DNA of 64,000 nucleotides from a bacterium UBP14_UBA6098. Lineage in GTDB: Bacteria > UBP14 > UBA6098. Both the position numbers and the translations under genes were made by a program. The notes below the pieces were generated by a model that worked only from the letters and a program-made list of their open reading frames with translations, was not told the origin of the DNA and ran no database searches. Below are positions 4,858-56,914 of the stretch, piece by piece (the stretch's first letter is position 1; every line of letters begins with the position of its first letter). The stretch lies in NCBI GenBank assembly GCA_002428525.1, contig DIWU01000032.1, positions 1,269 to 65,268 on the forward strand, written 5' to 3'.

Positions 4858-4980
4858 CGCGTGCGGCGTCGGCCCGACCGAAGGTCGGCGCGGGGCGATC
4901 GAGAGGTAATTTCCAACAATAAGCGATCTGCGCCTCGACCGCCCCGCCGGCGTCCGAAGGACGCGCCGACGCCGCACGCG
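4858..4980. other. GC-rich nested inverted-repeat element (16-bp closing stem around two GAA-loop hairpins)
   Basis: CGCGTGCGGCGTCGGC (4858-4873) pairs with GCCGACGCCGCACGCG (4965-4980). Inner hairpins are CCGACC-GAA-GGTCGG (4874-4888) and GCGTCC-GAA-GGACGC (4950-4964). No T-tract follows. Confidence 0.5.
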
Positions 4981-26701: not shown

Positions 26702-29478
26702 AACAAACAGCCATCTTTTTATGCGCAATTTGTATTCTTTTTGCGGAGACATCGCCCGCATCTTTTTCGGGCTTCGAGCCGGAGGCCTCGCCCTTCGATT
26801 CGACGATAACCCCGACATTCTTTTCACTTGTCGCGCTCTCCGATTGGATTCCGGACGGCGGTGCGCAGGTAGTTATTCTGTTTCCGAAAACACCTATCGG
26901 TTACGGCATCGATCCGGGCTGGTCGGGGTCGGCGCGACCGAACATTTTCTGCGAGAGCACTGTCGATATGCCGTTCTTGCAGGATCCGATGACCGGCCTT
27001 CCGATCGAAACTATCGCGAGTTCGGCCTCGATGGGCCTCGCATTGCTTCGGGCCTCTGGAAGCGGCTATTTCAGTATTTCGGCTAAGGACAATCTCGGCC
27101 TTATAAAACCATCGATGCCGCTTCTATTCGAGGTGATCCCATCCGGCACCTCCGCGATCGAATGGCAAATACACGGGCCGAGCCGGATGAATTACCCCGG
27201 CGATTTCTCGATTCATTGGGCCGTCGCGGCGGATTTCGAGGGCAGACCGGTTCCCTCGGCCTTTCCGGGCCTTGTCAGCAGTGTAGTCCGCGTCAGGATC
27301 GCCGGTGAAAGCAGGCCGGACTCGAGCGCCCGCGTCGCTAACGCCTTCGACAGAACACCTGTTTTCGAGGCAAGCCTCACAGGCTTCTACGGCATCTTCC
27401 CGTTTATCATCACAAACGACCAGCCGGAGACAGTCACTGTGGTGGCGGAGGACCTCGCCGGAACATTAGCCGGTAGCGATACCTTCGAGGTAGTCTTCTT
27501 GCCGGGGGACGATCCCGCCAACCTGCTGATCTTCCCCGCCAACGGCATCCGAGTAGCCCGGAATACTAACGCCGGCCTCGTTGCGATGGCCTTTTCGAAC
27601 GGCTTTCCCGATCCGGTGAACTACTCGACGCGCGTCCGGATCAGCTCTGTCGATCTTTCGGGCGCTCCGAGCGTCTCGATCACGCCCTCGGGATGGCAAA
27701 CCCTGATCGGCGGGGTCGCAGGCTTCACATTCAGGGACACCGAGGCCGACACAAACTGGGTCTTTTTCCGCGCTGATATCGATTCCACGCCGCTCCTATT
27801 CGCCCCGATCAAAACACCGATTCAGGTCGTTCCCGAAGAAACAGCGATCAAGCTCGATATCGAATGCCCGAGCGTTGGCTTTCCCTTGGACTCGATCCCG
27901 CTAATAGTCTCGGCCCTGAACTCGCGCGGCGAGATTGACAACGATTGCGCGGGCTGGTTTATCCTCGACCTCCAATGCGAAGGGCCCGGAGCAATTTCGA
28001 TAATCGATTCGCTCAGCGGTGAGGTTTTTTCGCCCTCGGAACTCGCCTCGCGAGGGATCCAGCTCAATGCAGGTCGGCGGGTTTTCACTATTTACGAAGA
28101 CTCGGGGGCAACCATCGAGATTCAGCTCTCAGCCTCGGATGCCGAAATCGTCGGGCTTTTCGACAACGGCATGCTTCTTCCCGGCGCTACTGAAAACCTC
28201 TCCATCGGGATGCCGGACACCGGCGCTGTGGCCTACTCCTTCGTCACACCTTCAGAGGAGTATTTCCGCACGGGCGAGGAATTGATCATCACCGTCACCG
28301 CGCGAACCGGCATGACCTCGCTAATCGACCGTAGCTATTACGGAAGCGCGTCGATATCGGTCACCGGCGGCGCCTTCACCGTTCCCTCAGACGGCATCAT
28401 CGATTTTCACGGCGGAATCGCGACCTTCGCGCTGATCGACACAGTCTCCGAGGCGGTCGATATCGAGGTTAGCGGCCCGCTTTTCCCCGACACGCTAAGG
28501 GTTCGCTTCGTCCGCACCGGGGTTATGGCCTATTCGCAGGATTACAACTGGATTCCCCTCGGTGCGCAGAGAAATATGCGCATGGCGATTTTCAACGAGA
28601 CCTTCATCGCCACCGAATTCTGCGGCCCCGCCACGATCTCGGCCATCGAGCCGGATGGCGATGCGAGCGCGGTATTTCCAACCACCGTCGATTTCGTCTC
28701 GGGGATCGGGTTTTTCCCGCTTTCGAACTCCGATGCCGAGATAGTGACAGTCTTTGTCGATGGCGGCCCCGATGTCGGTTCCACGAGTTTTATCCTCGAA
28801 AGCCGTGCGCGGGTGAATTTCTCTTTGCCCCCGGTCACTCAGGTCGCCGCGGCCTTAGATACAATCCTCTTCGAGCTGACCGATTTTTACGGCGCGCATT
28901 ACTCCGCCGATTGCACAATCACAATCGATATCTCGGAGCAATTCGAAAACACCTCCGTTTCTTACGAAAACACGCTTGTCTTCGAGGATGGCAGTGCGGT
29001 TTTCACTCTCGAAAACTCCGAACCCGAATCGATATGGCTTCATGTTAGAATCCCCGAAGGACAGCTTCTCTATATGGATTCCGAGGAAATAGCCGATTGG
29101 GAATACTATATCGGCGCCCTCGATTATGTCGTCTGCGATATCGAGGAGACCGATCTTCCGCGAACGATCTCGCTCAGCGCTCATCCGAACCCATTCAACT
29201 CCGCGGTCAAGATCGTTCTCGATTCACCAAGCGGCCTCGATGCCTCGAGCTTGGAGATGGAAATCTTCGATATCGCGGGGCGGATCGTCGCCCGCACGGG
29301 CACCGAAGACCCGGTTGGCAACCCCTCAAACGAATTAAGCCGGAATACAAAGAGCGCTTCGACGGCTCATGAGTTCATATGGCACCCCGGAGAGTCCCAC
29401 GGTTCGGGCGTTTATTTCGTTCGAGTATCCTTACCGACTGGCGTTCCGATGACTATTAAGGCGGTTTATTTGAAATGA
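26698..29478 (+). CDS. large secreted protein (927 aa) with T9SS type-A C-terminal sorting domain, function unknown
   Basis: The signal peptide is MKQTAIFLCAICILFA. The C-terminus reads HPNPFNSAVKIVL...EIFDIAGRIV...SGVYFVRV...KAVYLK. The start overlaps the GT4 stop (ATGA). Confidence 0.6.
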   Translation: MKQTAIFLCAICILFAETSPASFSGFEPEASPFDSTITPTFFSLVALSDWIPDGGAQVVILFPKTPIGYGIDPGWSGSARPNIFCESTVDMPFLQDPMTGLPIETIASSASMGLALLRASGSGYFSISAKDNLGLIKPSMPLLFEVIPSGTSAIEWQIHGPSRMNYPGDFSIHWAVAADFEGRPVPSAFPGLVSSVVRVRIAGESRPDSSARVANAFDRTPVFEASLTGFYGIFPFIITNDQPETVTVVAEDLAGTLAGSDTFEVVFLPGDDPANLLIFPANGIRVARNTNAGLVAMAFSNGFPDPVNYSTRVRISSVDLSGAPSVSITPSGWQTLIGGVAGFTFRDTEADTNWVFFRADIDSTPLLFAPIKTPIQVVPEETAIKLDIECPSVGFPLDSIPLIVSALNSRGEIDNDCAGWFILDLQCEGPGAISIIDSLSGEVFSPSELASRGIQLNAGRRVFTIYEDSGATIEIQLSASDAEIVGLFDNGMLLPGATENLSIGMPDTGAVAYSFVTPSEEYFRTGEELIITVTARTGMTSLIDRSYYGSASISVTGGAFTVPSDGIIDFHGGIATFALIDTVSEAVDIEVSGPLFPDTLRVRFVRTGVMAYSQDYNWIPLGAQRNMRMAIFNETFIATEFCGPATISAIEPDGDASAVFPTTVDFVSGIGFFPLSNSDAEIVTVFVDGGPDVGSTSFILESRARVNFSLPPVTQVAAALDTILFELTDFYGAHYSADCTITIDISEQFENTSVSYENTLVFEDGSAVFTLENSEPESIWLHVRIPEGQLLYMDSEEIADWEYYIGALDYVVCDIEETDLPRTISLSAHPNPFNSAVKIVLDSPSGLDASSLEMEIFDIAGRIVARTGTEDPVGNPSNELSRNTKSASTAHEFIWHPGESHGSGVYFVRVSLPTGVPMTIKAVYLK

Positions 29479-30508: not shown

Positions 30509-32371
30509 ATGATGAAAAAAATAATCTTACTGCTTGTAATACCCATCTTTAGCCTATTTGCGTGGGAGGAGATCGGCCCGATAGGCTTCTCCGCCAATCG
30601 TGTTCTCCCCGACCCAACTCGGCCGGACTCGATCTATGCAATAATCGGCGGAGGCGCTTCGGAAAGGCGTCTCGAACTCGTGCGAACACCGGACCGAGGC
30701 GCTAGCTGGGATTCCCTCGGCGAGTACGAAAGCGCCGTCCTTCATCCGGCGACCGCAGAGACCGTTTTCGCCTCTCTCGGCATCGGCTCTTTCTCCGACG
30801 GAGTTTGGCGAAGCAACGATTTCGGGCGAACCTTCGAGTTCCCGCCGCCGGACTGGCTTTATCTCGCAAAAGGTGCGATTTATGATCCCCGAGACCCCTC
30901 GAGGCTCTTCGCTTGGGGCTCTACGATCGACCGATCGACCGACGGCGGGAGTAGCTGGGAGGTTGTCTATTCGACAATCGGCACACCGGACATGTATTTC
31001 ACCGGTGTTGCAGTTGACCCGGTTTATAACCACCGCGTCTATGCTTGGGACGGCATGGGCCGCCTCTTTCACTCGCTCGACTACGGCTCCTCATGGCGCC
31101 TTCTTTTCACCTTCACCGAGCATATGTCGCCCAACGAGATAGCGGTTTCCCCTCGGGATTCTTGCATCCTTTACGCCGCTTGTTGGTGCGGCTTCGCCTT
31201 CAGCCGAAACTGCGGTTTTGATTGGGAATATGTTGACCTCGATCCGCAACCCTCGAATTGTATCTTCGTTCAGGGCGGAGCAACAGAGCATATATATATC
31301 GGCGGGGCTTACGGCGCGTTGGCCTCGGAGGACGAGGGCATGTCATGGGCGCCGCTCGGCGACGATATACCCTGCGCGGTTTTCGATATTGCCCAAGGCC
31401 CGGAACCATCCGGGGGACAGTATTTATACGTAGGCACCGAGCGCTTTGGCGCAATGCGTATGCCGATCGGGCCTTCCTCAGAGGGGCCTATCGTCGGGCC
31501 ATACAGCCCGCTAAACGGCGCATGGGTCTCTCTCGATAGTTTCGCTATCTTCGTAGGTTTGCGCGATCCCGATGGCATCGACGAGGCAAGCCTGATTTTT
31601 TCGGTTAATGACGTAGAATTCGATTGCTCTAATCCTCAGCTTTCCTTGGCAGATTCTGGCATGTTATTTATAAGCGAATATACTGATGGCGAGACCCTGC
31701 ACCTCGCCCTCGAACGGGCAAACGACTGCTTGGGTAATCCCTCGGACATGCTCCCCCTCGAATGGACGATCTATATCGACCGCTCACCCGCGGCAATGCT
31801 TTATCGCCATCCGGATTCGGCCGATGTCGTGATTGGCTCGGATATTACTGCAAAATTCTATATCCGCGATCTCGGCGCAGGAATCGACACTTCAACCTTT
31901 TACGCCGTTTTCGGCTCCGATACCGTCAGATTGTCCTCCATGGCGGCCATCTTCGATGCGGACACGTTCATTATACACCTCCCCACCGCTGGAATTTCCC
32001 CCGCACCCGGCGAGACCGTGTCGGTGGAGGTCGGAATCGCCGACAAAGCAACATTTGCGGGGCCAAACTCGATGCTTCGCAGATGGTTTTTCAGCGTCAG
32101 CCCGACAGGCCTTTCCGAGGCCAGTTTGCCGTCCGGTCTTGAGCTCTCTGTTCATCCCAATCCATTCAACTCCGCTCTAACAGTCGAGACCAATCTACCC
32201 GTAAAGATAGAAATCATCGATATTTCCGGCCGATCCGTCGCAAAACTCGATTACCCCGGCGGTGTTGCACATTGGCAACCGGATGTTTCTATTCGTTCCG
32301 GGCTATATCTTCTCCTCATCAGGACTGAGAGGGGAGAGGTTTTCACGAGAAAGATATTCTTATTGAAGTAA
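30509..32371 (+). CDS. secreted BNR/Asp-box repeat protein with T9SS C-terminal domain
   Basis: The signal peptide is followed by multiple SxDxGxSW motifs (STDGGSSWE, SLDYGSSWR). The C-terminus reads HPNPFNSALTVE...IIDISGRSV...SGLYLLLI...K. Confidence 0.65.
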   Translation: MMKKIILLLVIPIFSLFAWEEIGPIGFSANRVLPDPTRPDSIYAIIGGGASERRLELVRTPDRGASWDSLGEYESAVLHPATAETVFASLGIGSFSDGVWRSNDFGRTFEFPPPDWLYLAKGAIYDPRDPSRLFAWGSTIDRSTDGGSSWEVVYSTIGTPDMYFTGVAVDPVYNHRVYAWDGMGRLFHSLDYGSSWRLLFTFTEHMSPNEIAVSPRDSCILYAACWCGFAFSRNCGFDWEYVDLDPQPSNCIFVQGGATEHIYIGGAYGALASEDEGMSWAPLGDDIPCAVFDIAQGPEPSGGQYLYVGTERFGAMRMPIGPSSEGPIVGPYSPLNGAWVSLDSFAIFVGLRDPDGIDEASLIFSVNDVEFDCSNPQLSLADSGMLFISEYTDGETLHLALERANDCLGNPSDMLPLEWTIYIDRSPAAMLYRHPDSADVVIGSDITAKFYIRDLGAGIDTSTFYAVFGSDTVRLSSMAAIFDADTFIIHLPTAGISPAPGETVSVEVGIADKATFAGPNSMLRRWFFSVSPTGLSEASLPSGLELSVHPNPFNSALTVETNLPVKIEIIDISGRSVAKLDYPGGVAHWQPDVSIRSGLYLLLIRTERGEVFTRKIFLLK

Positions 32372-38427: not shown

Positions 38428-39780
38428 ATGTTTCGCATCATCGACAAAAACAGCGTGATCGGCTATTGGGCGGCTCTCCGCCCGATAGCCGTCGCCGTTT
38501 TGACCCTATTTGCCCCGCTGAACGCCGCGCCAGTTGTTCGCTTCGGCGTTGAAGCCAACCTCGCCAATCAAAACTATTCCGAGATTACAAGCTCTGAGAT
38601 GAACTCGGGGGCCTTTCTCGAGTTTTCGAGAAGCGTCGATTGCCCGATGAGATTATCCGGCGGCGTCAGAGCTGTCTCGATAACCTCGGACGACTTAGGT
38701 TATCTTCTTGTGGGGCCGGAGGTTAACGCATTTTACTATCTTCCCCTCGCGAGAAGGATAAGCCTATCCGGCGGCCTCGGCGCTGGATATCTTATCTCGA
38801 ATGCAGACGAGATCGAGAGCGGAGCTTATTGTCGCGTCGCGGTTGGCGCGAAAATTAACCCCTTGCCCGTTATAGATTTACGGTTATCACTATCCGCGAT
38901 TCCATTTAAATCGCCCAACGAAACAGCATTCTCGAACTACGGTTTCGGCCTCGGGATTTCCTATATGTTCGGCTTTAAGGACAGAGACCGCGACTGGGTT
39001 TCAAACGATCTTGACATATGCCCGAATACACCTCGCGGCGCTAAGGTTGACGAGATGGGTTGCGCCTTCGACAACGACGGCGACGGCGTTTTCGACGGTC
39101 TGGACAAATGCCCGAACACCGCTTCGGGATGTATCGTTGACGAGGATGGTTGCCCGGTGGACTCCGATGACGACGGAGTTTGCGACGGTGTAGATAAATG
39201 CTCAGAAACTCCGGGCCATATTGAGGTCGATTCGACCGGTTGCCCCAAGGACTCCGATGGCGACGGCGTGCCGGATTACATGGATAAATGCCCGGGCACT
39301 CCTCGAAAAGCGATAGTTGACGAGTTCGGTTGCCCCAAAGACTCCGACGAGGACGGCGTGCCCGACGGCCTCGACCAATGCCCGCAAACACCGAGCGGAT
39401 TTATCGTAAATTCGGTCGGTTGTCCCTTTGTCTCCCCCGTCGAATATGAGGAGATCCGCGACGCCTACGATATCAGTCTGAGCCTCAAGGCCGCCGCGAT
39501 GCAGAAACTGGAAAACATCGCCGAACGGCTCAGGGCCTACCCATTCCGCATCGTGGAAATCGGCGTTTATACAGACAGCGAGGGCAGTGTCACCTATAAT
39601 ATCAACCGCGGAATGCGTGTCGCGGAAAAGGTTAGAGATGTGTTGGTCGCGCGTGGCGTCACGGCCGACCAGCTTAAGCTCAAGGGCTACGGCGAGGCCG
39701 ATCCCGTGGCGCCGAACTCCACCTCGGAGGGCCTTCTTCAGAATAGAAGAATTGTGTTCAAATATATAAACGATAAGTAA
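38428..39780 (+). CDS. OmpA-family outer-membrane protein with thrombospondin type 3 (TSP3) calcium-binding repeats
   Basis: The N-terminal signal/beta region is followed by about 7 DxDxDGxxDxxDxCP repeats. The C-terminal OmpA peptidoglycan-binding domain reads GYGEADPVAPNSTSEGLLQNRRIVF. The start is ATG 38428, and the tool ORF start inside rpsA was rejected. Confidence 0.75.
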   Translation: MFRIIDKNSVIGYWAALRPIAVAVLTLFAPLNAAPVVRFGVEANLANQNYSEITSSEMNSGAFLEFSRSVDCPMRLSGGVRAVSITSDDLGYLLVGPEVNAFYYLPLARRISLSGGLGAGYLISNADEIESGAYCRVAVGAKINPLPVIDLRLSLSAIPFKSPNETAFSNYGFGLGISYMFGFKDRDRDWVSNDLDICPNTPRGAKVDEMGCAFDNDGDGVFDGLDKCPNTASGCIVDEDGCPVDSDDDGVCDGVDKCSETPGHIEVDSTGCPKDSDGDGVPDYMDKCPGTPRKAIVDEFGCPKDSDEDGVPDGLDQCPQTPSGFIVNSVGCPFVSPVEYEEIRDAYDISLSLKAAAMQKLENIAERLRAYPFRIVEIGVYTDSEGSVTYNINRGMRVAEKVRDVLVARGVTADQLKLKGYGEADPVAPNSTSEGLLQNRRIVFKYINDK

Positions 39781-39813
39781 AAACAAAGCCATTTTGCCCC
39801 GACAGGAGGGAAA

Positions 39814-41736
39814 ATGAAGAAATTGCTGTTAGCTCTAGTGATGTTAGTTCTCGTCGGAAGTTTAGCCTTCGGCGAAGAGGTGCTCTACAAGTTTTCCGCA
39901 GGCCCAAGCGCCGGTTTAGTCAAAACCGGTGGAGTCTTCGACTATTGGGCACTCGGACAAACCTACGGCGGCGTGTTTAAGTTCGGGATTACTAAAGAAT
40001 TCGAAATTGGTATTCAAGGGGCTTATAACTATTCCTACCCGGGGAATAATATCAGCATCTTCCCCTTCCCCCTCAGAGATGCGGAAACAAAGGTTTTGCT
40101 CCCCCTTACCGACTTCCATCCTCCGGGAAACGCCTTCGTTGTCATTCCGGATTCTACAAACATCAACGGCTATCGGCTCGAGAGCTACAAAAAGATCCGC
40201 TTCTCAATGGATAGGCACCCCAACCTGCCGATTAAGCTCACAGCTATACCGATCGAGCTTTTCATGCAGTGGCGCAGTTTCACGCATACAATCTTCAATC
40301 CATATATCCAAATCGGCGGCGGCCTGATGTCATGGAAGGCTGTCAATGACGAAACCGGCAAGCTGTTCGAGGTCGCATATGAACCGGACGCTAGGTATGG
40401 CGATGTTCTGCCCGAAACGACATGGGTCGAGTTCAAGGGTCGCCATTTCCATATGATGCTCGGTCTCGGCTTCGAGGTATTCCCCGTCGAACAGGTCGGT
40501 ATCGATGTCGGTTTCCGCGGATACTATCCGTTCATGGACGATATGGCTGTCTTCACCCTCGACACTATCGTCGGTTGGGCGGAGATCTCCGCGAGGCTGA
40601 ATTTCTACTACGGCGGTGTCCGCGATAGCGATAAGGACGGCGTCTTCGATAAGGACGATAAGTGCCCGCATACACCATTCGGCGCTATCGTCGATGAATT
40701 CGGCTGTCCCGTGGATACCGACGGCGATGGTATCTTTGACGGCCTCGACAAATGCCCCAACACGGCGATCGGCTGTATCGTCGATATTGAGGGCTGTCCG
40801 TTAGATATCGATGGCGACGCTATTTGCGACGGTATCGATAGATGTCCCGAAACACCCTCCGGCGTGAAAGTTGACGAATTCGGATGTCCGGTCGATTCCG
40901 ACGGCGACGGCGTGCCGGATTATTTGGACAATTGTCCGAATACACCGCTCGGGGCCTTGGTCGATGTCAGCGGCTGTCCGATGGACACCGACGGCGACGG
41001 CGTTTACGACGGCCTCGACAAATGCCCCAACACTCCTATCGGCACTGTTGTTAACCAGTTCGGTTGCCCGCAAACGAAGGCCGATACCGATGGCGACGGC
41101 ATCTCCGACGATCAGGACAGGTGCCCCGACACACCGCGTGGCGCAAGGGTCGATGATTTCGGTTGTCCGGTCGATTCCGACAGCGATATGGTGCCCGATC
41201 ATAAGGACAAATGCCCGAACACCACAAAGGGCTGTATCGTCGATGCCGATGGTTGCCCGCTCGATTCCGACGGCGACGGCGTCTGCGACGGCCTCGACAA
41301 ATGCCCGAATACTCCAAAGGACATCGAAGTCAACGAGGACGGCTGTCCTAAGCTGAAGAAGCTCAAGAAGGGCGAATCGATTCGTGTTAAGGTCTATTTC
41401 GAAACGGCCAAATGGGACATCACTCCTCAAGGTGCTAAAGACCTGCAAATCGCCTTTAACACCCTCAAGGCCTACCCCGAAATGATGGTCGTGATCGAGG
41501 GCCACACAGACGCGAGAGGCGCTGAGGATTACAACCGTGAGCTATCGATCAAACGCGCGAAGAGCATCAAGGAATGGCTCGTCAAACAGGGCATCGAGGA
41601 TAGCCGCCTCGAAACTGTAGGCTATGGCGAATCCCGCCCGGTTGACACAAACGAAACCGCGGAGGGAATGGCGAACAACCGCAGAATCGAATTCAGATGC
41701 ACGAGCGGTTGTGCCGAAGAGGTCGAATTCGAATAG
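39814..41736 (+). CDS. OmpA-family outer-membrane protein with TSP3 repeats (paralog)
   Basis: The signal peptide is MKKLLLALVMLVLVGSLAFG. About 12 TSP3 repeats are followed by an OmpA C-terminal domain (NRRIEF). AGGAGGG precedes the start. Confidence 0.75.
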   Translation: MKKLLLALVMLVLVGSLAFGEEVLYKFSAGPSAGLVKTGGVFDYWALGQTYGGVFKFGITKEFEIGIQGAYNYSYPGNNISIFPFPLRDAETKVLLPLTDFHPPGNAFVVIPDSTNINGYRLESYKKIRFSMDRHPNLPIKLTAIPIELFMQWRSFTHTIFNPYIQIGGGLMSWKAVNDETGKLFEVAYEPDARYGDVLPETTWVEFKGRHFHMMLGLGFEVFPVEQVGIDVGFRGYYPFMDDMAVFTLDTIVGWAEISARLNFYYGGVRDSDKDGVFDKDDKCPHTPFGAIVDEFGCPVDTDGDGIFDGLDKCPNTAIGCIVDIEGCPLDIDGDAICDGIDRCPETPSGVKVDEFGCPVDSDGDGVPDYLDNCPNTPLGALVDVSGCPMDTDGDGVYDGLDKCPNTPIGTVVNQFGCPQTKADTDGDGISDDQDRCPDTPRGARVDDFGCPVDSDSDMVPDHKDKCPNTTKGCIVDADGCPLDSDGDGVCDGLDKCPNTPKDIEVNEDGCPKLKKLKKGESIRVKVYFETAKWDITPQGAKDLQIAFNTLKAYPEMMVVIEGHTDARGAEDYNRELSIKRAKSIKEWLVKQGIEDSRLETVGYGESRPVDTNETAEGMANNRRIEFRCTSGCAEEVEFE

Positions 41737-48488: not shown

Positions 48489-50192
48489 ATGGCTCTTCGA
48501 CTCGGCGAGATGTTAATTAGAGCTGGTAGGATAACTCAAGCCCAACTCGACGAAGCCCTTGTGGCACAAAAGGATTCCGGCGAAAAACTCGGGCAGGTGC
48601 TTCTCAATCTCGGCTATATCCGCGACGAGAATGTCATCAACGAGTTCGTCGCGAAACAGCTCAATGTCGGCACAATCAAGCTCGAAGACCTCGAGCTGGA
48701 CCCCAATGTCGTCGAGCTGATCCCTGTCGATATCGCCCGCAAATTCTTTGTTATCGCAACGATCAAGGTCGGGCGAATGCTCTTCGTCGCAACCGAAGAC
48801 CCCACTAACCTTTTCGTCCTCGACACCCTGAAATTCGTGACGAACTGCGATATTCAGCCGGTGATGGCCACTAAAGGCCAGATTACCACCGCAATCGATA
48901 AGTATTACGGCTCGGATGTCGAAACCATCGACGATATTCTCGAGGACATGGCCGGTGAAGAAGACCTCGATGTTATCGAGGACAAAGACGACGATTTCTC
49001 CGAATCCGACCTCCAACAGGCAATCCAAGAAAAACCGCTTGTTAAATTAGTGAACTCGATTATCATGGACGCAATCCGCCGAAACGCCTCGGATATCCAT
49101 ATCGAGACCTTCGAGAAGCGAACCCGTTGCCGAATGCGTATCGACGGCCGCCTCTACGAGATGGCGCCGATGCCCTTCAGGCTTAGATACGCCGTTGTCA
49201 GCCGTATCAAGATCATGGCCAAGCTGAATATCTCGGAGCGAAGGCTTCCTCAGGACGGCAGAATCAAGGTTCACGCACAGGGCAGGTCTATCGACCTTCG
49301 TGTGTCCGTACTTCCGACGATCTTCGGGGAAAAGGTCGTTATGCGTCTCCTCGACCCGGAAACCCTCATGCTTGATGTCACGAAGCTGGGCTTCCCGAAG
49401 CGGGCGCTCAAAGAATTCAACAAGGCCATTCATATGCCATTCGGGATGGTGCTCGTCACGGGGCCTACAGGCTCGGGTAAAACGACTACGCTTTATTCGG
49501 CATTGAGCCAACTCAACACGCCGGAGATCAACATCATGACCGCGGAGGACCCGGTCGAGTTCAACCTCGACGGAATCAATCAGGTGCATATGCATTCCGA
49601 GATCGGACTCACCTTCGCCGCGGCGCTAAGAAGCTTCTTGCGTCAGGACCCCGATGTCATCCTCGTCGGCGAGATCCGCGACGGCGAAACCGCCTCGACG
49701 GCAATCAAAGCCGCTCTTACCGGTCATTTGGTCTTCAGCACGCTTCACACAAACGACGCCCCGAGCACGATCACAAGGCTTGTCGATATGGGCACGCCGC
49801 CGTTCTTGGTCGCCAGCTCGATCAGGCTGATCATGGCGCAGAGGCTTCTGCGGCGTGTATGCAAGTTCTGTAAACACGAGATAAAACCGGATCCGGAGAT
49901 GCTCGAGATCATCGGAATGAGCTCCGAGGACGCCGAAAAGGTGACCTTTTATGAAGGTGCCGGCTGTCCGCAGTGCAACGGCTCGGGATACAAGGGCCGT
50001 ATCGCGGTTTTCGAGGTCATGCCGATGTCAATCGGGCTTGAAAAGATGATTATCGAGGGTGCGAGCGCTCTCGAACTCAGCGAACAGGCCGCAAAGGACG
50101 GAATGAGAACGCTCCGTCAAGAGGCCATCAGGTTTATGATCGAGGGGATCACCTCGATAGAGCAGGTTATCACCGAAACAGCCGCTCATTAG
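48489..50192 (+). CDS. pilB: type IV pilus assembly ATPase PilB (GspE family)
   Basis: It has an N-terminal GSPII_E_N domain, Walker A GPTGSGKTT and a C-terminal tetracysteine CKFC...CPQC. The protein is 567 aa. Confidence 0.85.
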   Translation: MALRLGEMLIRAGRITQAQLDEALVAQKDSGEKLGQVLLNLGYIRDENVINEFVAKQLNVGTIKLEDLELDPNVVELIPVDIARKFFVIATIKVGRMLFVATEDPTNLFVLDTLKFVTNCDIQPVMATKGQITTAIDKYYGSDVETIDDILEDMAGEEDLDVIEDKDDDFSESDLQQAIQEKPLVKLVNSIIMDAIRRNASDIHIETFEKRTRCRMRIDGRLYEMAPMPFRLRYAVVSRIKIMAKLNISERRLPQDGRIKVHAQGRSIDLRVSVLPTIFGEKVVMRLLDPETLMLDVTKLGFPKRALKEFNKAIHMPFGMVLVTGPTGSGKTTTLYSALSQLNTPEINIMTAEDPVEFNLDGINQVHMHSEIGLTFAAALRSFLRQDPDVILVGEIRDGETASTAIKAALTGHLVFSTLHTNDAPSTITRLVDMGTPPFLVASSIRLIMAQRLLRRVCKFCKHEIKPDPEMLEIIGMSSEDAEKVTFYEGAGCPQCNGSGYKGRIAVFEVMPMSIGLEKMIIEGASALELSEQAAKDGMRTLRQEAIRFMIEGITSIEQVITETAAH

Positions 50193-50209
50193 GGCTTTTA
50201 GGAAGATCT

Positions 50210-51376
50210 TTGATAGAGACTCAAACATCGGTTAAAAGCGAGAGTTTACTGAAGATGCTTCTCGGAGAGATGATCCGAAAGCAGGCGACCGATATGCATA
50301 TATCGGCGGATAGCTCGCCGATGCTCAGGATCGACGGGAAGCTTATTATGATGCAATTGCGACCGTTTTCAGAAGAAATGACCAAGATGTTGGCCTATTC
50401 GCTTATGACCAACGCCCAAAGACGCAAATTCGAGCGAGATCTCGATCTCGATTTTTCTTTCGGGGTGAAGGGGCTTTCGAGGTTTCGTTGCAATGTTTTT
50501 CACCAGCGCGAATCGATAGCGATCTCGATAAAATCGATACCTTACGAAATAAAGACTCCGCAAGACCTCAGGATTCCACCGGAGGTTTTTCAATTCGGCG
50601 AGGTCAAGAACGGCTTGGTTTTAGTCACCGGCCCGAGAGGTTCCGGCAAATCCACGACCTTGAGCGCTTTGATCAAACGGCTTAACGAAGAGCGGCGCTC
50701 GCATATTCTAACTGTCGAAGACCCTATTGAACTTGTGTATAATTCGATGAGCGGAATAGTGAACCAGCGTGAGGTTTTGAAGGACACCAAGGCCTATGAG
50801 ATAGCCCTCGCATCGGTGCCGAGGCAGGATGTGGACATTCTGTTCGTTAGCGAAGCGAACGACGCCGAAAAACTGCTCTCCACCTTGAAGGTGGCCGATA
50901 TGGGCCTTTTGGTTTTTGCAACTATGCGTTCGAGAGACGCGGTGAGCGCGGTGATGAGGTTTATCGATCTGAATATGCCGTATTATCTGATAAACGGCGC
51001 TTTGAGGATGATCATCTCTCAGAGGTTGCTTCGACGAATATGCCCTAATTGCCGGCGCGTCGTGACCCCCGACGACGACCTTCTAAGGTCGATCGGGATC
51101 GATCCGATGAAGGTGAAAAACTACAATTTTTACCGGGGGTCGGGTTGCCCGAAATGCAACGGCACCGGTTATCAGGGAAGGATCCCTGTTTTCGAGTCTT
51201 TAAAAATAACGCCCGTCATAAGGACGATGATCCAAGCCGGAACCTCGGTGATCGAACTCTGGCGCGAGGCGGTGAACGAGGGCATGATACCCATGAGAAA
51301 AGTAGCGCTTAGATATATGCTCGAAGGCGAAACGACGCTCGATCAGGTCGCCTCGGAGACTATTAGTTACCAATAG
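50210..51376 (+). CDS. PilT-like retraction ATPase paralog carrying a GspE/PilB-type C-terminal tetracysteine zinc motif
   Basis: The PilT-like N-terminus reads ATDMHISADSSPMLRIDGKL. Walker A is GPRGSGKST. The C-terminus has CPNC...CPKCNGTGYQGRIPVFE. The exact start is uncertain (TTG 50210 or downstream). Confidence 0.75.
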   Translation: MIETQTSVKSESLLKMLLGEMIRKQATDMHISADSSPMLRIDGKLIMMQLRPFSEEMTKMLAYSLMTNAQRRKFERDLDLDFSFGVKGLSRFRCNVFHQRESIAISIKSIPYEIKTPQDLRIPPEVFQFGEVKNGLVLVTGPRGSGKSTTLSALIKRLNEERRSHILTVEDPIELVYNSMSGIVNQREVLKDTKAYEIALASVPRQDVDILFVSEANDAEKLLSTLKVADMGLLVFATMRSRDAVSAVMRFIDLNMPYYLINGALRMIISQRLLRRICPNCRRVVTPDDDLLRSIGIDPMKVKNYNFYRGSGCPKCNGTGYQGRIPVFESLKITPVIRTMIQAGTSVIELWREAVNEGMIPMRKVALRYMLEGETTLDQVASETISYQ

Positions 51377-51386
51377 AGGGAGAACC

Positions 51387-52604
51387 ATGCAGAAAGAAGA
51401 GCAAAACAATTTCGATCAGGGCGATGATTTTTTGGGGAGTGAACTGCCCGAAGAGATTAAGGATAAAAAACCCGCCCCGAAACCTTCGGACAATAAAACT
51501 CAAGCGCCACCGCCGAAGCGCGATCTCTCGATGCGCACACTGCTCGACGAGATGATCCACCGCGGTGCCTCGGATTTGCATATCACTGTTGGCTCGCCGC
51601 CGGTCTTTCGCCTCGACGGTAGCCTTCATAAGATGGCCGCGGATATTGTCACAGAGGATACCGCAAAGCGCTTCGCCTATTCGATCATGACCGAAAAACA
51701 AAAACAGCAATTTGAGGAGAACTGGGAGGTTGACCTTTCTTTCGGGATCAAGGGTCTCTCGCGCTTCAGATGCAATGCCTTCCTTCAGCGCGGCTCGGTT
51801 GCTTTAGCGGTTCGTGCGGTGCCGTTTAAGATTCACACGCTCGAAGAACTCGGTCTTCCCGCGACGGTTAACAAATTCTCGGATTACCCGCGCGGGCTTA
51901 TTCTCGTGTGCGGCCCTACAGGCTCGGGCAAATCGACAACGCTCGCCGCGATTATCGATAAGATCAACCGCGAGCGCCACGAGCATATTCTCACCGTCGA
52001 GGACCCGATCGAGTTCGTCCATCGCCATAAGAACTGCATTGTAAACCAGCGCGAGGTTCACAGCGACACTCTCTCCTTCTCCCGCGCCCTGAAATACGCC
52101 CTCCGCGAGGACCCCGATGTTGTCCTGATCGGCGAGATGCGCGATCTGGAGACGATCTCCTCCGCGCTGACAATCGCAGAAACAGGCCATTTGGCCTTCG
52201 CGACTCTGCACACAAACTCCGCCGCGGAAACTATCAACCGTATTATCGATGTCTTCCCTACGAACCAACAAACACAGGTCAGGGTTCAGCTTTCGTTCGT
52301 CCTGCAGGCTGTTCTTACACAGACCTTGGTGCCGAAGATCGGCGGCGGCCGCGTGGTTGCCACCGAGGTTATGGTCGCGACGGCCGCTATCCGCGCCCAG
52401 ATCCGCGACGACAAAGTTCATCAGCTCTATAGCTCGATTCAAGCCGGCGGGAAATATGGAATGCAGACCCTCAACTCGTCCCTCGCGGAACGCTATCTCG
52501 AGGGTGTCATCACTCTCGAGGATTGCCTCGGCCGTAGCCCCGACCAACAGGAGTTAAACGACATTATTGCCCGCAAGAGAATACAGAGCGAAGAGGGCAG
52601 ATAG
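51387..52604 (+). CDS. pilT: twitching-motility ATPase PilT (with an N-terminal extension of about 50 aa)
   Basis: GASDLHITVGSPPVFRLDG, GPTGSGKSTT and an AIRNLIRE-like region are present, and there is no C-terminal cysteine motif. Confidence 0.85.
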   Translation: MQKEEQNNFDQGDDFLGSELPEEIKDKKPAPKPSDNKTQAPPPKRDLSMRTLLDEMIHRGASDLHITVGSPPVFRLDGSLHKMAADIVTEDTAKRFAYSIMTEKQKQQFEENWEVDLSFGIKGLSRFRCNAFLQRGSVALAVRAVPFKIHTLEELGLPATVNKFSDYPRGLILVCGPTGSGKSTTLAAIIDKINRERHEHILTVEDPIEFVHRHKNCIVNQREVHSDTLSFSRALKYALREDPDVVLIGEMRDLETISSALTIAETGHLAFATLHTNSAAETINRIIDVFPTNQQTQVRVQLSFVLQAVLTQTLVPKIGGGRVVATEVMVATAAIRAQIRDDKVHQLYSSIQAGGKYGMQTLNSSLAERYLEGVITLEDCLGRSPDQQELNDIIARKRIQSEEGR

Positions 52605-55620: not shown

Positions 55621-55636
55621 CTCATTGGGAGGAAAA

Positions 55637-56914
55637 ATGTTGAACAAGTCTATTATTGCCGCGCTGTGCCTTTATATCTTGACCGCGATGGCCTATTCGC
55701 TCAATCCCGATATTCCATACTACCCCGAGGGCACAGCCCCGAATCCGCCTAAAAATATGCTCGATGTCTATGTCCCGAGCGGGATTATCGAGGCGGCTCC
55801 CGTTTTGTTCTTCGTTCACGGCGGGACATGGACCTACGGCGACCGATCAGACTACACGGCCGTCGGCGCTTATCTTGCCGATCAAGAGGGCTATGTCACG
55901 GTCGTGATTTCATACAGCCTCAGCGATTCGCTCCATCCCGAGGTCTCGCACCCCGACCATATCCTCGATGTTGCGCAGGCCTTCAAATGGACTGTGGACA
56001 ATATTGCCGATTACGGCGGCGATCCCTCGCGCATCGTTGTGATCGGGCATTCCGCCGGAGCGCACCTCGCGACGTTGCTCGCTACCAACACGCGTTTTCT
56101 CGACTCGCTGTCGATCGGGATCGAGTCAATCAAGGCCGTTGTGTCATTCAATATGGGCATCTATGATATTCCCAAGCTCTATCGCGATTGCGGCATGCTC
56201 GGACCCACAGGATATAGCATGATGGGTTTTTCGGCGATCTTCGGCCCGATTGCCGACAGCTCCTTCAATTGGTATGACGCCTCGCCGAAGTATCATGTCT
56301 CCGAGGAAACTCCGCCTTTCGTGTTCTTCGTTTCGACAGCGGATATGGAACAGATCATCGGCGGCGACTTCGGCGGTTACGGTGTTCTGATTCTTCCCGG
56401 CGAGGTTCAGTTCACATACAGCGATTTCCGCGCCTATCAGCCTTCGGACACCTTTTGGCTCGTCGGCGACCACAACAGCGCATTCTCGGACTTTGTTTAC
56501 GATCGGCTCTCGCGCGGGCGGGTTCTGACTATGGCCTTCCTCGACGAGGTTTTCACTGGAATCGAGGAAGACAGGGACTTGCCGACAGACCTTGTGATTT
56601 CCGCCCACCCGAACCCCTTCAACTCCGCGGTGACGATTTCCCTCGACGGCGCGGCCATTTGTCATTCCCGCGAAAGCGGGAATCCAGAAGGCGTTCGCGT
56701 GGAGATTTTCGACCTCGCGGGGCGAATCGTCGAAACCCTCCGGCCTTCGGCCACCACCCTTGAAAAGGGAGGCCAAGAAATCCAAATTCTTGAGGGGGGT
56801 TCCGTCCTTTGGACACCCGCCCCCTCGGTCGGCTCGGGCGTATATCTCGTGCGTGTTGGGTTCGGCCCTTCGGACGTTAAGGCCGCGGCGAAGAGGCTGG
56901 TTTATCTGAAATAG
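55637..56914 (+). CDS. secreted alpha/beta-hydrolase (esterase/lipase) with T9SS C-terminal sorting domain
   Basis: A signal peptide is present. The HGGTW oxyanion motif and GHSAG nucleophile elbow are present. The C-terminus reads HPNPFNSAVTISL...EIFDLAGRIV...SGVYLVRV...K. The start is ATG 55637 after GGAGG. Confidence 0.7.
   Translation: MLNKSIIAALCLYILTAMAYSLNPDIPYYPEGTAPNPPKNMLDVYVPSGIIEAAPVLFFVHGGTWTYGDRSDYTAVGAYLADQEGYVTVVISYSLSDSLHPEVSHPDHILDVAQAFKWTVDNIADYGGDPSRIVVIGHSAGAHLATLLATNTRFLDSLSIGIESIKAVVSFNMGIYDIPKLYRDCGMLGPTGYSMMGFSAIFGPIADSSFNWYDASPKYHVSEETPPFVFFVSTADMEQIIGGDFGGYGVLILPGEVQFTYSDFRAYQPSDTFWLVGDHNSAFSDFVYDRLSRGRVLTMAFLDEVFTGIEEDRDLPTDLVISAHPNPFNSAVTISLDGAAICHSRESGNPEGVRVEIFDLAGRIVETLRPSATTLEKGGQEIQILEGGSVLWTPAPSVGSGVYLVRVGFGPSDVKAAAKRLVYLK
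56650..56676. repeat. 27-nt palindromic hairpin repeat (ATTCCCGC-GAAA-GCGGGAAT core) embedded in-frame in the esterase CTD
   Basis: TGTCATTCCCGCGAAAGCGGGAATCCAGAAG encodes CHSRESGNPE in the gene frame. The opposite strand encodes IPAFAGMT, the hallmark translation of a widespread small palindromic repeat. Confidence 0.6.

Follow-up and report, generated by a model that had tools for sequence, protein, structure and literature searches.

Location and structure of the palindromic element

The DNA stretch analyzed here (the window; 64,000 nt of contig DIWU01000032.1 of the bacterium UBP14_UBA6098) contains a gene for a secreted alpha/beta-hydrolase, an esterase whose product ends in a type A C-terminal sorting domain (CTD) of the T9SS, the secretion system of type IX. 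Within the part of the gene that encodes this CTD, a small palindrome is located in frame, one of the repetitive extragenic palindromes (REPs) of family CGTC-1. The longest open reading frame (ORF) of the esterase gene starts from the TTG at 55625 (55625..56914, 429 residues), and public gene calls start from the ATG at 55637 (425 residues). The positions of the features of the locus, and of two further CTDs of the window used as comparators, are listed in Table 1.

Table 1. Features of the esterase locus and comparator sorting domains (positions are those of the window).
Feature	Position	Strand	Basis or remark
Gene for secreted alpha/beta-hydrolase (BD-FAE / Abhydrolase_3 esterase)	55637..56914	+	Family models, orthologs, public calls
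T9SS type A CTD	56588..56911	+	Residues ~322-429 of the 429-residue ORF
CGTC-1 REP unit	56660..56687	+	Tag, arms, loop and tail read from the sequence; folding; family alignment
Unpaired tag TGTC	56660-56663	+	
Left arm ATTCCCGC	56664-56671	+	
Loop GAAA	56672-56675	+	
Right arm GCGGGAAT	56676-56683	+	
Tail CCA+G	56684-56687	+	CCA at 56684-56686
REP-encoded codons for residues 345-354 (ICHSRESGNP)	56657..56686	+	Between strands 336-341 and 357-362
Second inserted block, loop 2 (ETLRPSATTLEKGG)	56732..56773	+	Cross-locus identity
Comparator CTD of an unrelated 943-residue protein	29172..29475	+	Long loops, no recognised REP
Comparator compact 75-residue CTD of a 620-residue BNR/sortilin-like protein	32146..32368	+	No inserts

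The core of the element is a perfect hairpin, ATTCCCGC-GAAA-GCGGGAAT, with an 8-bp stem and a 4-nt loop at 56664..56683 of the forward strand. An earlier reading of the letters alone (hereafter the sequence-only reading) had recognized this hairpin and placed the repeat at 56650-56676, between the flanks GTC and CAG. The hairpin and the GTC flank were both found, and that interval covers the left part of the element; however, it lies approximately 11 nt too far to the left, the 27-mer GTCATTCCCGCGAAAGCGGGAATCCAG occupying 56661..56687, and the 3' flank is CCAG. The entire unit thus reads TGTC-stem-loop-stem-CCA(G).

The window contains a single copy of the element, and zero matches to it are expected in the shuffled window even when three mismatches are allowed. 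When folded as DNA, it gave a dG of -9.0 kcal/mol (z -6.2), and as RNA, -13.6 kcal/mol (z -5.5). No Rfam family was obtained at the hairpin at either threshold, and no inverted partner of the copy was found within the window. The 27-nt unit corresponds to nine codons; direct translation showed that the frame used here is free of stop codons and that five of the six frames are open. The minus-strand ORF at 56144..56785 reads WIPAFAGMT, as the sequence-only reading had pointed out, and this ORF is a by-product of the palindrome.

Three other classes of element were considered and ruled out: a terminator, because there is no T run 3' of the stem; a CRISPR or attC-like site, because there is no array and no partner; and a MITE (a transposable element of the miniature inverted-repeat type), because the unit is a 27-nt single hairpin with no further terminal inverted repeats and no target-site duplication, and the flanks of different copies are unrelated.

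The element is a member of the CGTC-1 REP family

CGTC-1 REPs were defined by Di Nocera, De Gregorio & Rocco (2013, BMC Genomics 14:522; PMC3733652) as having a CGTC tag, often TGTC (or CCTC), an 8-bp stem that begins with AT, a 4-nt loop, and a CCA tail. According to the same paper, the family is identical to Neisseria dRS3 and Rickettsia conorii RPE-6, its members are mostly head-to-head dimers for which no dedicated transposase is known, and CGTC REPs occur in five phyla, with Alphaproteobacteria foremost; REPs in general tend to sit within tens of bases of the 3' ends of ORFs. Its table of intragenic inserts shows that the CGTC-1 insert of the R. conorii gene RC1314 encodes CHSRESGNP, and the peptides encoded by other intragenic R. 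conorii copies include CHSRESGDP, CHSRRSGNP, VIPAKAGI, SFPRKRES, DSRFRGND, and WIPAFTGMT (PMC3733652). The tag ([C/T]GTC), the 8-bp AT stem, the 4-nt loop, and the CCA tail were all found in the window element, and it encodes the same peptide, CHSRESGNP. Judged by these sequence features, the window element is a copy of the CGTC-1 REP family. Since the family and its in-frame intragenic copies had already been described in PMC3733652, both were known beforehand. The window copy differs from those REPs in having no other REP beside it in the window and in its place within a sorting domain of the T9SS type, in a Zixibacteria-like bacterium that is uncultivated.

A scan of a collection of species-representative genomes identified the exact 20-mer of the hairpin in at least 120 stretches, compared with approximately one expected by chance (our own estimate, 2 x 5.96e11 / 4^20). 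The hosts among the matches listed belong to Chloroflexota, Alpha-, Beta-, and Gammaproteobacteria, groups of the candidate phyla radiation (CPR), Omnitrophota, Planctomycetota, Nitrospirota, Acidobacteriota, Zixibacteria, Cloacimonadota, and Bacteroidota. The view of the sequence-only reading that this is a widespread small palindromic repeat agrees with this distribution.

From the matches listed, 146 genome copies were aligned on the loop. GTC at the 5' side of the stem was conserved in 90-97% of these copies, with C (53%) or T (32%) at position -4, and C, C, and A at the 3' side were conserved in 95, 79, and 82%, respectively. Outside the tag and the tail, the sequences were unrelated between copies, which defines a sharply bounded unit. 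An inverted partner was present within 77 nt on the tail side in 63 of 144 genome copies, and most copies were located at the edges of stop-free stretches, that is, just outside genes. Overlap of the genome copies with long ORFs was dropped as evidence of intragenic location, because the overlaps were mostly with ORF ends or spurious ORFs of high GC content. In L097, the ORF between inverted copies encodes a CCG-type redox protein and not a transposase, so that no mobilising gene was found there.

Partial copies consisting of the tag and the left arm (GTCATTCC...) were also observed in tandem directly upstream of full CGTC-1 units, with periods of ~16-27 nt, in L111, L102, L068, and L090 and at L124 3497-3560. 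Such copies lay upstream in 19 of 144 genome copies and downstream in 6. The L124 example belongs to the CTD of P0024, an ortholog of the esterase described below, in which two partial copies with a 21-nt period precede the element and the coding form is CHSRTPV-CHSNSSN-CHSRENGNPEG.

The insert lies in a predicted sorting-domain loop of an intact gene

The element is in frame in the esterase ORF and encodes ...TISLDGAAICHSRESGNPEGVRVEIFD...; the CTD has PNPFN from 56609 and ends in ...RLVYLK at the stop codon. In an AlphaFold model based on the ortholog alignment (mean pLDDT, the predicted local distance difference test score, 81), most of the CTD was modelled as a β-sandwich. In loop 1, the surface loop between strands 1 and 2, the only stretch with a pLDDT below 50 was residues 345-354, which had the lowest confidence in the predicted β-sandwich, and loop 2 was also predicted with low confidence. 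The location in a variable loop of the CTD, as suggested by the sequence-only reading, is in accordance with both the ortholog alignment and the predicted model. The hydrophobic N terminus of the esterase (MLNKSIIAALCLYILTAMAYS) is signal-like by inspection and was modelled as a helix (8-21).

As it stands, the CTD scored slightly below the cutoffs of the two curated models, with 24.9 bits against 27 for PF18962 and 22.9 against 23 for TIGR04183. When residues 345-354 were deleted in silico, the scores increased to 27.6 and 29.0, respectively, and trimming of both inserts raised them to 28.3 and 31.6. The compact 75-residue comparator CTD, which shows the minimal architecture, passed TIGR04183 and scored 25.4 against 27 for PF18962.

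The sequence-only reading had offered two possibilities, namely that a MITE-like element had been tolerated inside a coding loop or that the gene had recently been disrupted. The esterase gene is intact: ORF 55625..56914 is uninterrupted, the strands past the insert are conserved, the canonical ...VYLK end precedes the stop codon, and the domain folds in the model. These observations do not support the idea of disruption, and of the other possibility the in-frame tolerance holds, although the element is a REP rather than a MITE. Because the unit comprises nine codons and this frame lacks a stop, a peptide is added and the rest of the protein is preserved; in the model, approximately ten disordered residues (ICHSRESGNP) are predicted to be added, with the β-sandwich and the catalytic domain left intact.

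Loop 2 of the same CTD contains a second inserted block with two hairpins, GGCC-TTC-GGCC (56742-56752) and CCACCCTT-GAA-AAGGGAGG (56754-56772, with one A.A mismatch). This block was identical at 40 of 41 nt to those of the unrelated CTDs of L121 and L140, and the adjoining 33 nt of strand-coding DNA were 67% identical. Folding of the block alone was not significant (z -1.7 as DNA and -0.8 as RNA), and the block is called a repeat because of its cross-locus identity, not its folding energy.

It was also considered that the insert might be ordinary coding sequence that is palindromic by chance, or a product of a chimeric assembly. Beyond the uninterrupted ORF, nothing speaks for either. The 27-mer exactly matches a repeat present in at least 120 unrelated genome stretches, where about one would be expected. 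Two assemblies, one from ENA (236.9-kb contig) and one from JGI (232.1-kb contig), contain the gene with identical DNA; they were produced by different pipelines from read sets that are possibly related. The same architecture was seen in dozens of contigs, the longest reaching 770 kb. Together with the ortholog data below, in which the sequence is lacking from most orthologs and is conserved as DNA rather than as peptide, these results render both explanations extremely improbable.

Conservation of the insert in orthologs

Twenty full-length orthologs of the esterase were found (40-68% identity), and their CTDs carry PF18962. The closest ortholog, P0005 (68-73% identity), has short CTD loops 1 and 2 and lacks the insert. 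Compact loops were also seen in most of the 20 orthologs, whereas loops 1 and 2 of the window protein contain DGAAICHSRESGNPEG and RPSATTLEKGGQEIQILEGG, respectively. Insert-free orthologs, the existence of which the sequence-only reading had anticipated, are therefore common, and the insert is a derived feature.

The peptide was found in one ortholog only, P0024, which is the most distant one (40% identity) and has CHSRENGNPEG in the same loop. Its element DNA (TGTCATTCCCGTGAAAACGGGAATCCGGAAGG) is identical to that of the window at 29 of 33 bases, whereas the CTD frameworks are 63% identical at the nucleotide level. In addition, the two differences in the stem are compensatory (C:G to T:A), so that the hairpin is kept and the peptide changes from S to N. 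These results indicate that the DNA element, and not the peptide, is conserved. The same peptide encoded by divergent DNA, which the sequence-only reading had named as a sign of ordinary coding sequence, was accordingly not what P0024 showed. No presence/absence polymorphism was provided by P0124, which is identical to P0024. An ORF with DUF772, the N-terminal domain of IS5-type transposases, was observed at L124 2020-2367, just upstream of the P0024 esterase gene.

Pairing was further compared among 13 distinct copies located in CTDs, in which 95% of the stem cells pair and the closing pair is C:G in six, U:A in five, and A:U in one. An unpaired stem position was present in five of the 13 copies, and a sixth has T.G.

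REPs in the loops of the CTD subfamily

A word-indexed protein search with the CTD alone yielded 3 hits from 25 candidates and was too insensitive for counting carriers. The first three CTD homologs obtained had other palindromes in the same loops, namely GCGTATTG/CAATACGC, GGGCGGGTC-TGA-GACCCGCCC, and CCCTCTCCC-AGA-GGGAGAGGG. Metagenome contigs were then scanned with the CTD alignment, which gave 80 loci with 74 distinct CTD DNAs. Perfect hairpins with a stem of at least 7 bp and a loop of 3-8 nt were counted. The hairpin density was 6.30/kb in the 74 CTD DNAs, compared with 0.41/kb in the coding DNA that lies upstream in these ORFs, 0.94/kb in the downstream DNA, and 0.51/kb in dinucleotide shuffles of the CTDs. 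Among 138 anchored hairpins, 90 were located in loop 2, 42 in loop 1, and 3 each in loop 3 and in strand-coding DNA; 135 of the 138 were thus in loops.

The hairpins in the CTDs span many families, and many of them have GTAG...CTAC tags or GGG...CCC stems. The CGTC-1 element was present in loop 1 of approximately 18 distinct CTDs in constant orientation and frame (CHSRE.GNPE), with GAAA, GAAG, GCAA, or GAAC as its loop. On the same contigs, extragenic GTAG dimers and CGTC copies were found directly 3' of stop codons, which shows that these organisms host REPs in their normal niche as well. Clusters of GTAG REP dimers were noted to start 50-200 nt past the stop codons of CTD genes (L202 1850-1975, L204 1942-2019, L206 1853-2036, and L187 2154-2353); examples are cGTAG GGGCGACCC-GGT-GGGTCGCCC and GGGTCAACC...GGTTGACCC CTACg, and their stem families recur in frame in CTD loops.

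Because the DNA sample was biased toward the long CTD of the window, the survey was repeated at the protein level with a profile in which the insert columns are not positions. With a threshold of E<=1e-3, this search returned 85,740 cluster representatives, and with E<=1e-10 the number was 1,008. At least one recurrent loop motif was present in 120 of the 139 best CTDs (86%). The window-type peptide was found in loop 1 of 11-12 of these 139, and in P0301 it is identical (CHSRESGNPE). Three of the 139 have a dimer of the CGTC-1 family in loop 2, read in other frames. The CTD subfamily (HPNPFNSAVTI...GSGVYLVRA...KRVVYLK) derives from uncultivated Zixibacteria-like and related bacteria, and the contents of its loops 1 and 2 combine as a mosaic. 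The insert of the esterase is hence not an isolated event, since the same element occurs in the same frame and loop in approximately 30 other CTDs and other REP families occupy the same loops.

In six giant proteins (P0249, P0250, P0251, P0383, P0386, and P0388; 1,799-4,691 residues), the distal part of the CTD profile (positions ~41-81) was matched internally 8-18 times, and the CTD-like module seems to be used in them as an internal repeat.

Origin of the copy

We consider it probable that the esterase carries a CGTC-1 REP in CTD loop 1 as a tolerated passenger, which reached this site through a small number of insertions combined with recombination between CTDs. The DNA would then most likely do nothing for the esterase. 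In Bacteroidota, the CTD acts as the signal for T9SS secretion, and the PorU sortase takes it off following export. By extension from Bacteroidota, tolerance would come from the loop site and from the CTD being a mere secretion tag that is cut off after export, and a loop of such a disposable β-sandwich would be, by analogy, about as permissive as coding sites get. CTDs also occupy the 3' ends of their ORFs, the neighbourhood in which REPs tend to sit. Many GTAG- and CGTC-tagged palindromes have built up in frame in both variable loops of the CTD subfamily, and the CGTC-1 copies would go back to few insertion events, probably followed by spread via CTD duplication, gene conversion, or recombination between CTDs.

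The upstream flank of the window element, GGCGCGGCCATTT, resembles that of L136, and the downstream flank, AAGGCGTT..., resembles those of L131, L145, and L146. All of the approximately 30 loop-1 copies share one frame and orientation, and other frames occur in loop 2. The constant frame, orientation, and site, the partly shared flanks, and the mosaic loops suggest few insertions rather than fresh transposition. Furthermore, the framework of the esterase CTD (56596-56914) is 81% identical at the nucleotide level (68/84) to that of the CTD of the 943-residue protein of the same window and 70% identical to that of the CTD of its closest ortholog. These sequence identities hint at concerted evolution of the CTDs within the genome. 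In a linkage test, likeness among carriers of the element was raised only in the 30-nt segment that lies downstream of the loop (0.715 vs 0.679, p=0.006).

Several observations weigh against this interpretation. In the linkage test, no raised likeness among carriers was seen in the upstream segment (p=0.68) or the distal one (p=0.95), and with linkage this weak, repeated insertion at a preferred site is conceivable. The window copy matches the consensus perfectly over the 27-mer and shows no decay, and this may point to a recent event. No other tagged REP was found in the 64 kb, and the genome may therefore not host an active family. The 12- to 15-fold enrichment of hairpins in CTDs over neighbouring coding DNA is above what simple tolerance would need. 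As for the surveys, the sample of 80 loci was ranked by likeness to the long CTD of the window and is biased in this respect, and the patterns of the loop motifs were defined after seeing the data, so that the value of 86% is indicative only.

The absence of decay would also be expected if an active REP or MITE-like element had freshly and independently transposed into the esterase gene, with loop 1 as its preferred target. The absence of the element from the closest ortholog, and the recurrence of this site and frame in CTDs with no special relatedness of their frameworks, are in line with such an event. On the other hand, the copy is single and unaccompanied by other tagged REPs in the window, and its immediate flanks match those of other carrier CTDs on both sides. 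The restriction of the loop-1 copies to one of five open frames/orientations, when others occur in loop 2, is likewise unfavourable to fresh transposition, as are the lack of a visible target duplication at the insertion and the lack of a known transposase for CGTC REPs. We therefore regard such a transposition as very unlikely.

The enrichment bears on a further explanation, in which the hairpins are functional in place and the CTD loops are a selected habitat rather than merely a permissive one. The hairpins might be mRNA structures close to the 3' end that make the transcript more stable or set the pace at which the secretion tag is translated; in another variant, DNA hairpins or short identical blocks might be recombination hot spots that exchange CTD cassettes between genes. 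In addition to the enrichment, which holds over both upstream coding DNA and shuffles, this explanation would account for the location of 98% of the anchored hairpins in loops, the maintenance of the stem through compensatory changes with loops of GAAA, GCAA, GAAG, or GAAC, the mosaic loop contents and recombined look of the frameworks, and the loop-2 block, with 98% identity between CTDs that share 67% in the neighbouring codons. However, the stem is not strictly kept, as a stem position is left unpaired in five of the 13 distinct copies and another copy contains T.G, and the compensatory variants may simply represent different source subfamilies. Dozens of unrelated hairpin families fill the loops, and the same families are also extragenic. 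Moreover, the majority of the orthologous esterases do without any of them, as do two of the window's three CTDs, and no Rfam family matches. Function in place is thus unlikely, although it deserves some weight. The broader proposition that two CTD loops in uncultivated bacteria of the Fibrobacteres-Chlorobi-Bacteroidetes (FCB) group are a preferred, possibly selected, REP habitat in which the hairpins act appears to us likewise unlikely. Passenger DNA spread by few insertions and CTD recombination is retained as the favoured explanation.

Comparison with known systems

Many of the palindromes in the CTD loops and downstream of the CTD genes resemble GTAG REPs and REPINs, which are mobilised by REP-associated tyrosine transposases (RAYTs), in having GTAG...CTAC and forming dimers. 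In contrast, the window copy has a TGTC tag of the CGTC type, which has no known dedicated transposase. No RAYT gene was seen, although the ORFs of the window were not all screened for one. Palindromic elements in frame within protein genes were reportedly described in Rickettsia by Ogata et al. in Science in 2000. The present case resembles the Rickettsia elements in that several palindrome families occur in frame in functional genes and are tolerated in surface-exposed segments. Of the features of in-frame REPs and Rickettsia palindromic elements (RPEs), a maintained frame, homologs without the insert, and, in the predicted model, a loop site were found here. The Rickettsia inserts, however, are scattered over unrelated housekeeping proteins in all frames, whereas those described here crowd into two loops of a single domain family (6.3/kb), with one frame and orientation for the CGTC-1 copies of loop 1 and mosaic combinations. 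Like the MITEs found inside genes (such as Correia/NEMIS, Nezha, and ERIC), the element is a non-autonomous repeat that can be read through in frame. MITEs are 70-300 bp long and have terminal inverted repeats and target duplications (PMC3733652), whereas this element is a 27-nt single hairpin with neither.

Other features of the window

The window is ordinary chromosome, with genes for RNase Y, RecD2, MgtE, ribosomal protein S1, an OmpA protein with thrombospondin type-3 (TSP3) repeats, pilus and type II secretion system (T2SS) ATPases, and sensor kinases. The RNase Y of the window has its nearest named relatives in Zixibacteria (60-64% identity). Immediately upstream of the esterase gene, a run at 48489-52604 comprises three adjacent paralogous genes for T2SSE/PilB/PilT-type ATPases and, after these, a T2SSF gene and a gene for a PAS histidine kinase. 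Eight copies of a repeat with a period of ~90 nt at 38929-41315 correspond to type-3 repeats, located in the OmpA-family protein (39814..41736) and its upstream neighbour.

An intergenic, GC-rich structured element was observed at 4858-4980, in which a 16-bp outer stem (CGCGTGCGGCGTCGGC / GCCGACGCCGCACGCG) surrounds three inner hairpins, and GAA forms the loop in two of these. It is a single copy in the window, and its minimum free energy (MFE) as RNA is -86.1 kcal/mol (z -6.7). The sole Rfam hit was to a plant miRNA precursor, far below threshold and on both strands, as is typical of a generic long hairpin.

Implications

No prior description of REPs in T9SS CTDs was found in the searchable literature; the search was incomplete and is weak evidence of novelty. 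The CTD-loop habitat of REPs is apparently undescribed. The range of CGTC-1 is widened well past the five phyla reported in 2013, and REP inserts yield the familiar junk peptides IPAFAGMT, VIPAKAGIQ, and HSRESGNP of hypothetical proteins. REP inserts also push genuine T9SS sorting domains under the curated thresholds, and since CTD scores are lowered in this way, secreted proteins of candidate phyla are likely under-called.

For the CTD family itself, these results suggest that a disposable secretion tag can serve as a sink for selfish palindromes, at 12-15 times the density of the neighbouring coding DNA, and they provide a natural experiment on the load of foreign sequence that a β-sandwich signal domain tolerates. 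If the hairpins are functional or recombinogenic, they would represent a new bacterial way to diversify and redistribute secretion signals. In the case of a selected habitat, the hairpins could tune mRNA stability or translation of secreted proteins, or could drive a shuffling of secretion tails among genes and genomes.

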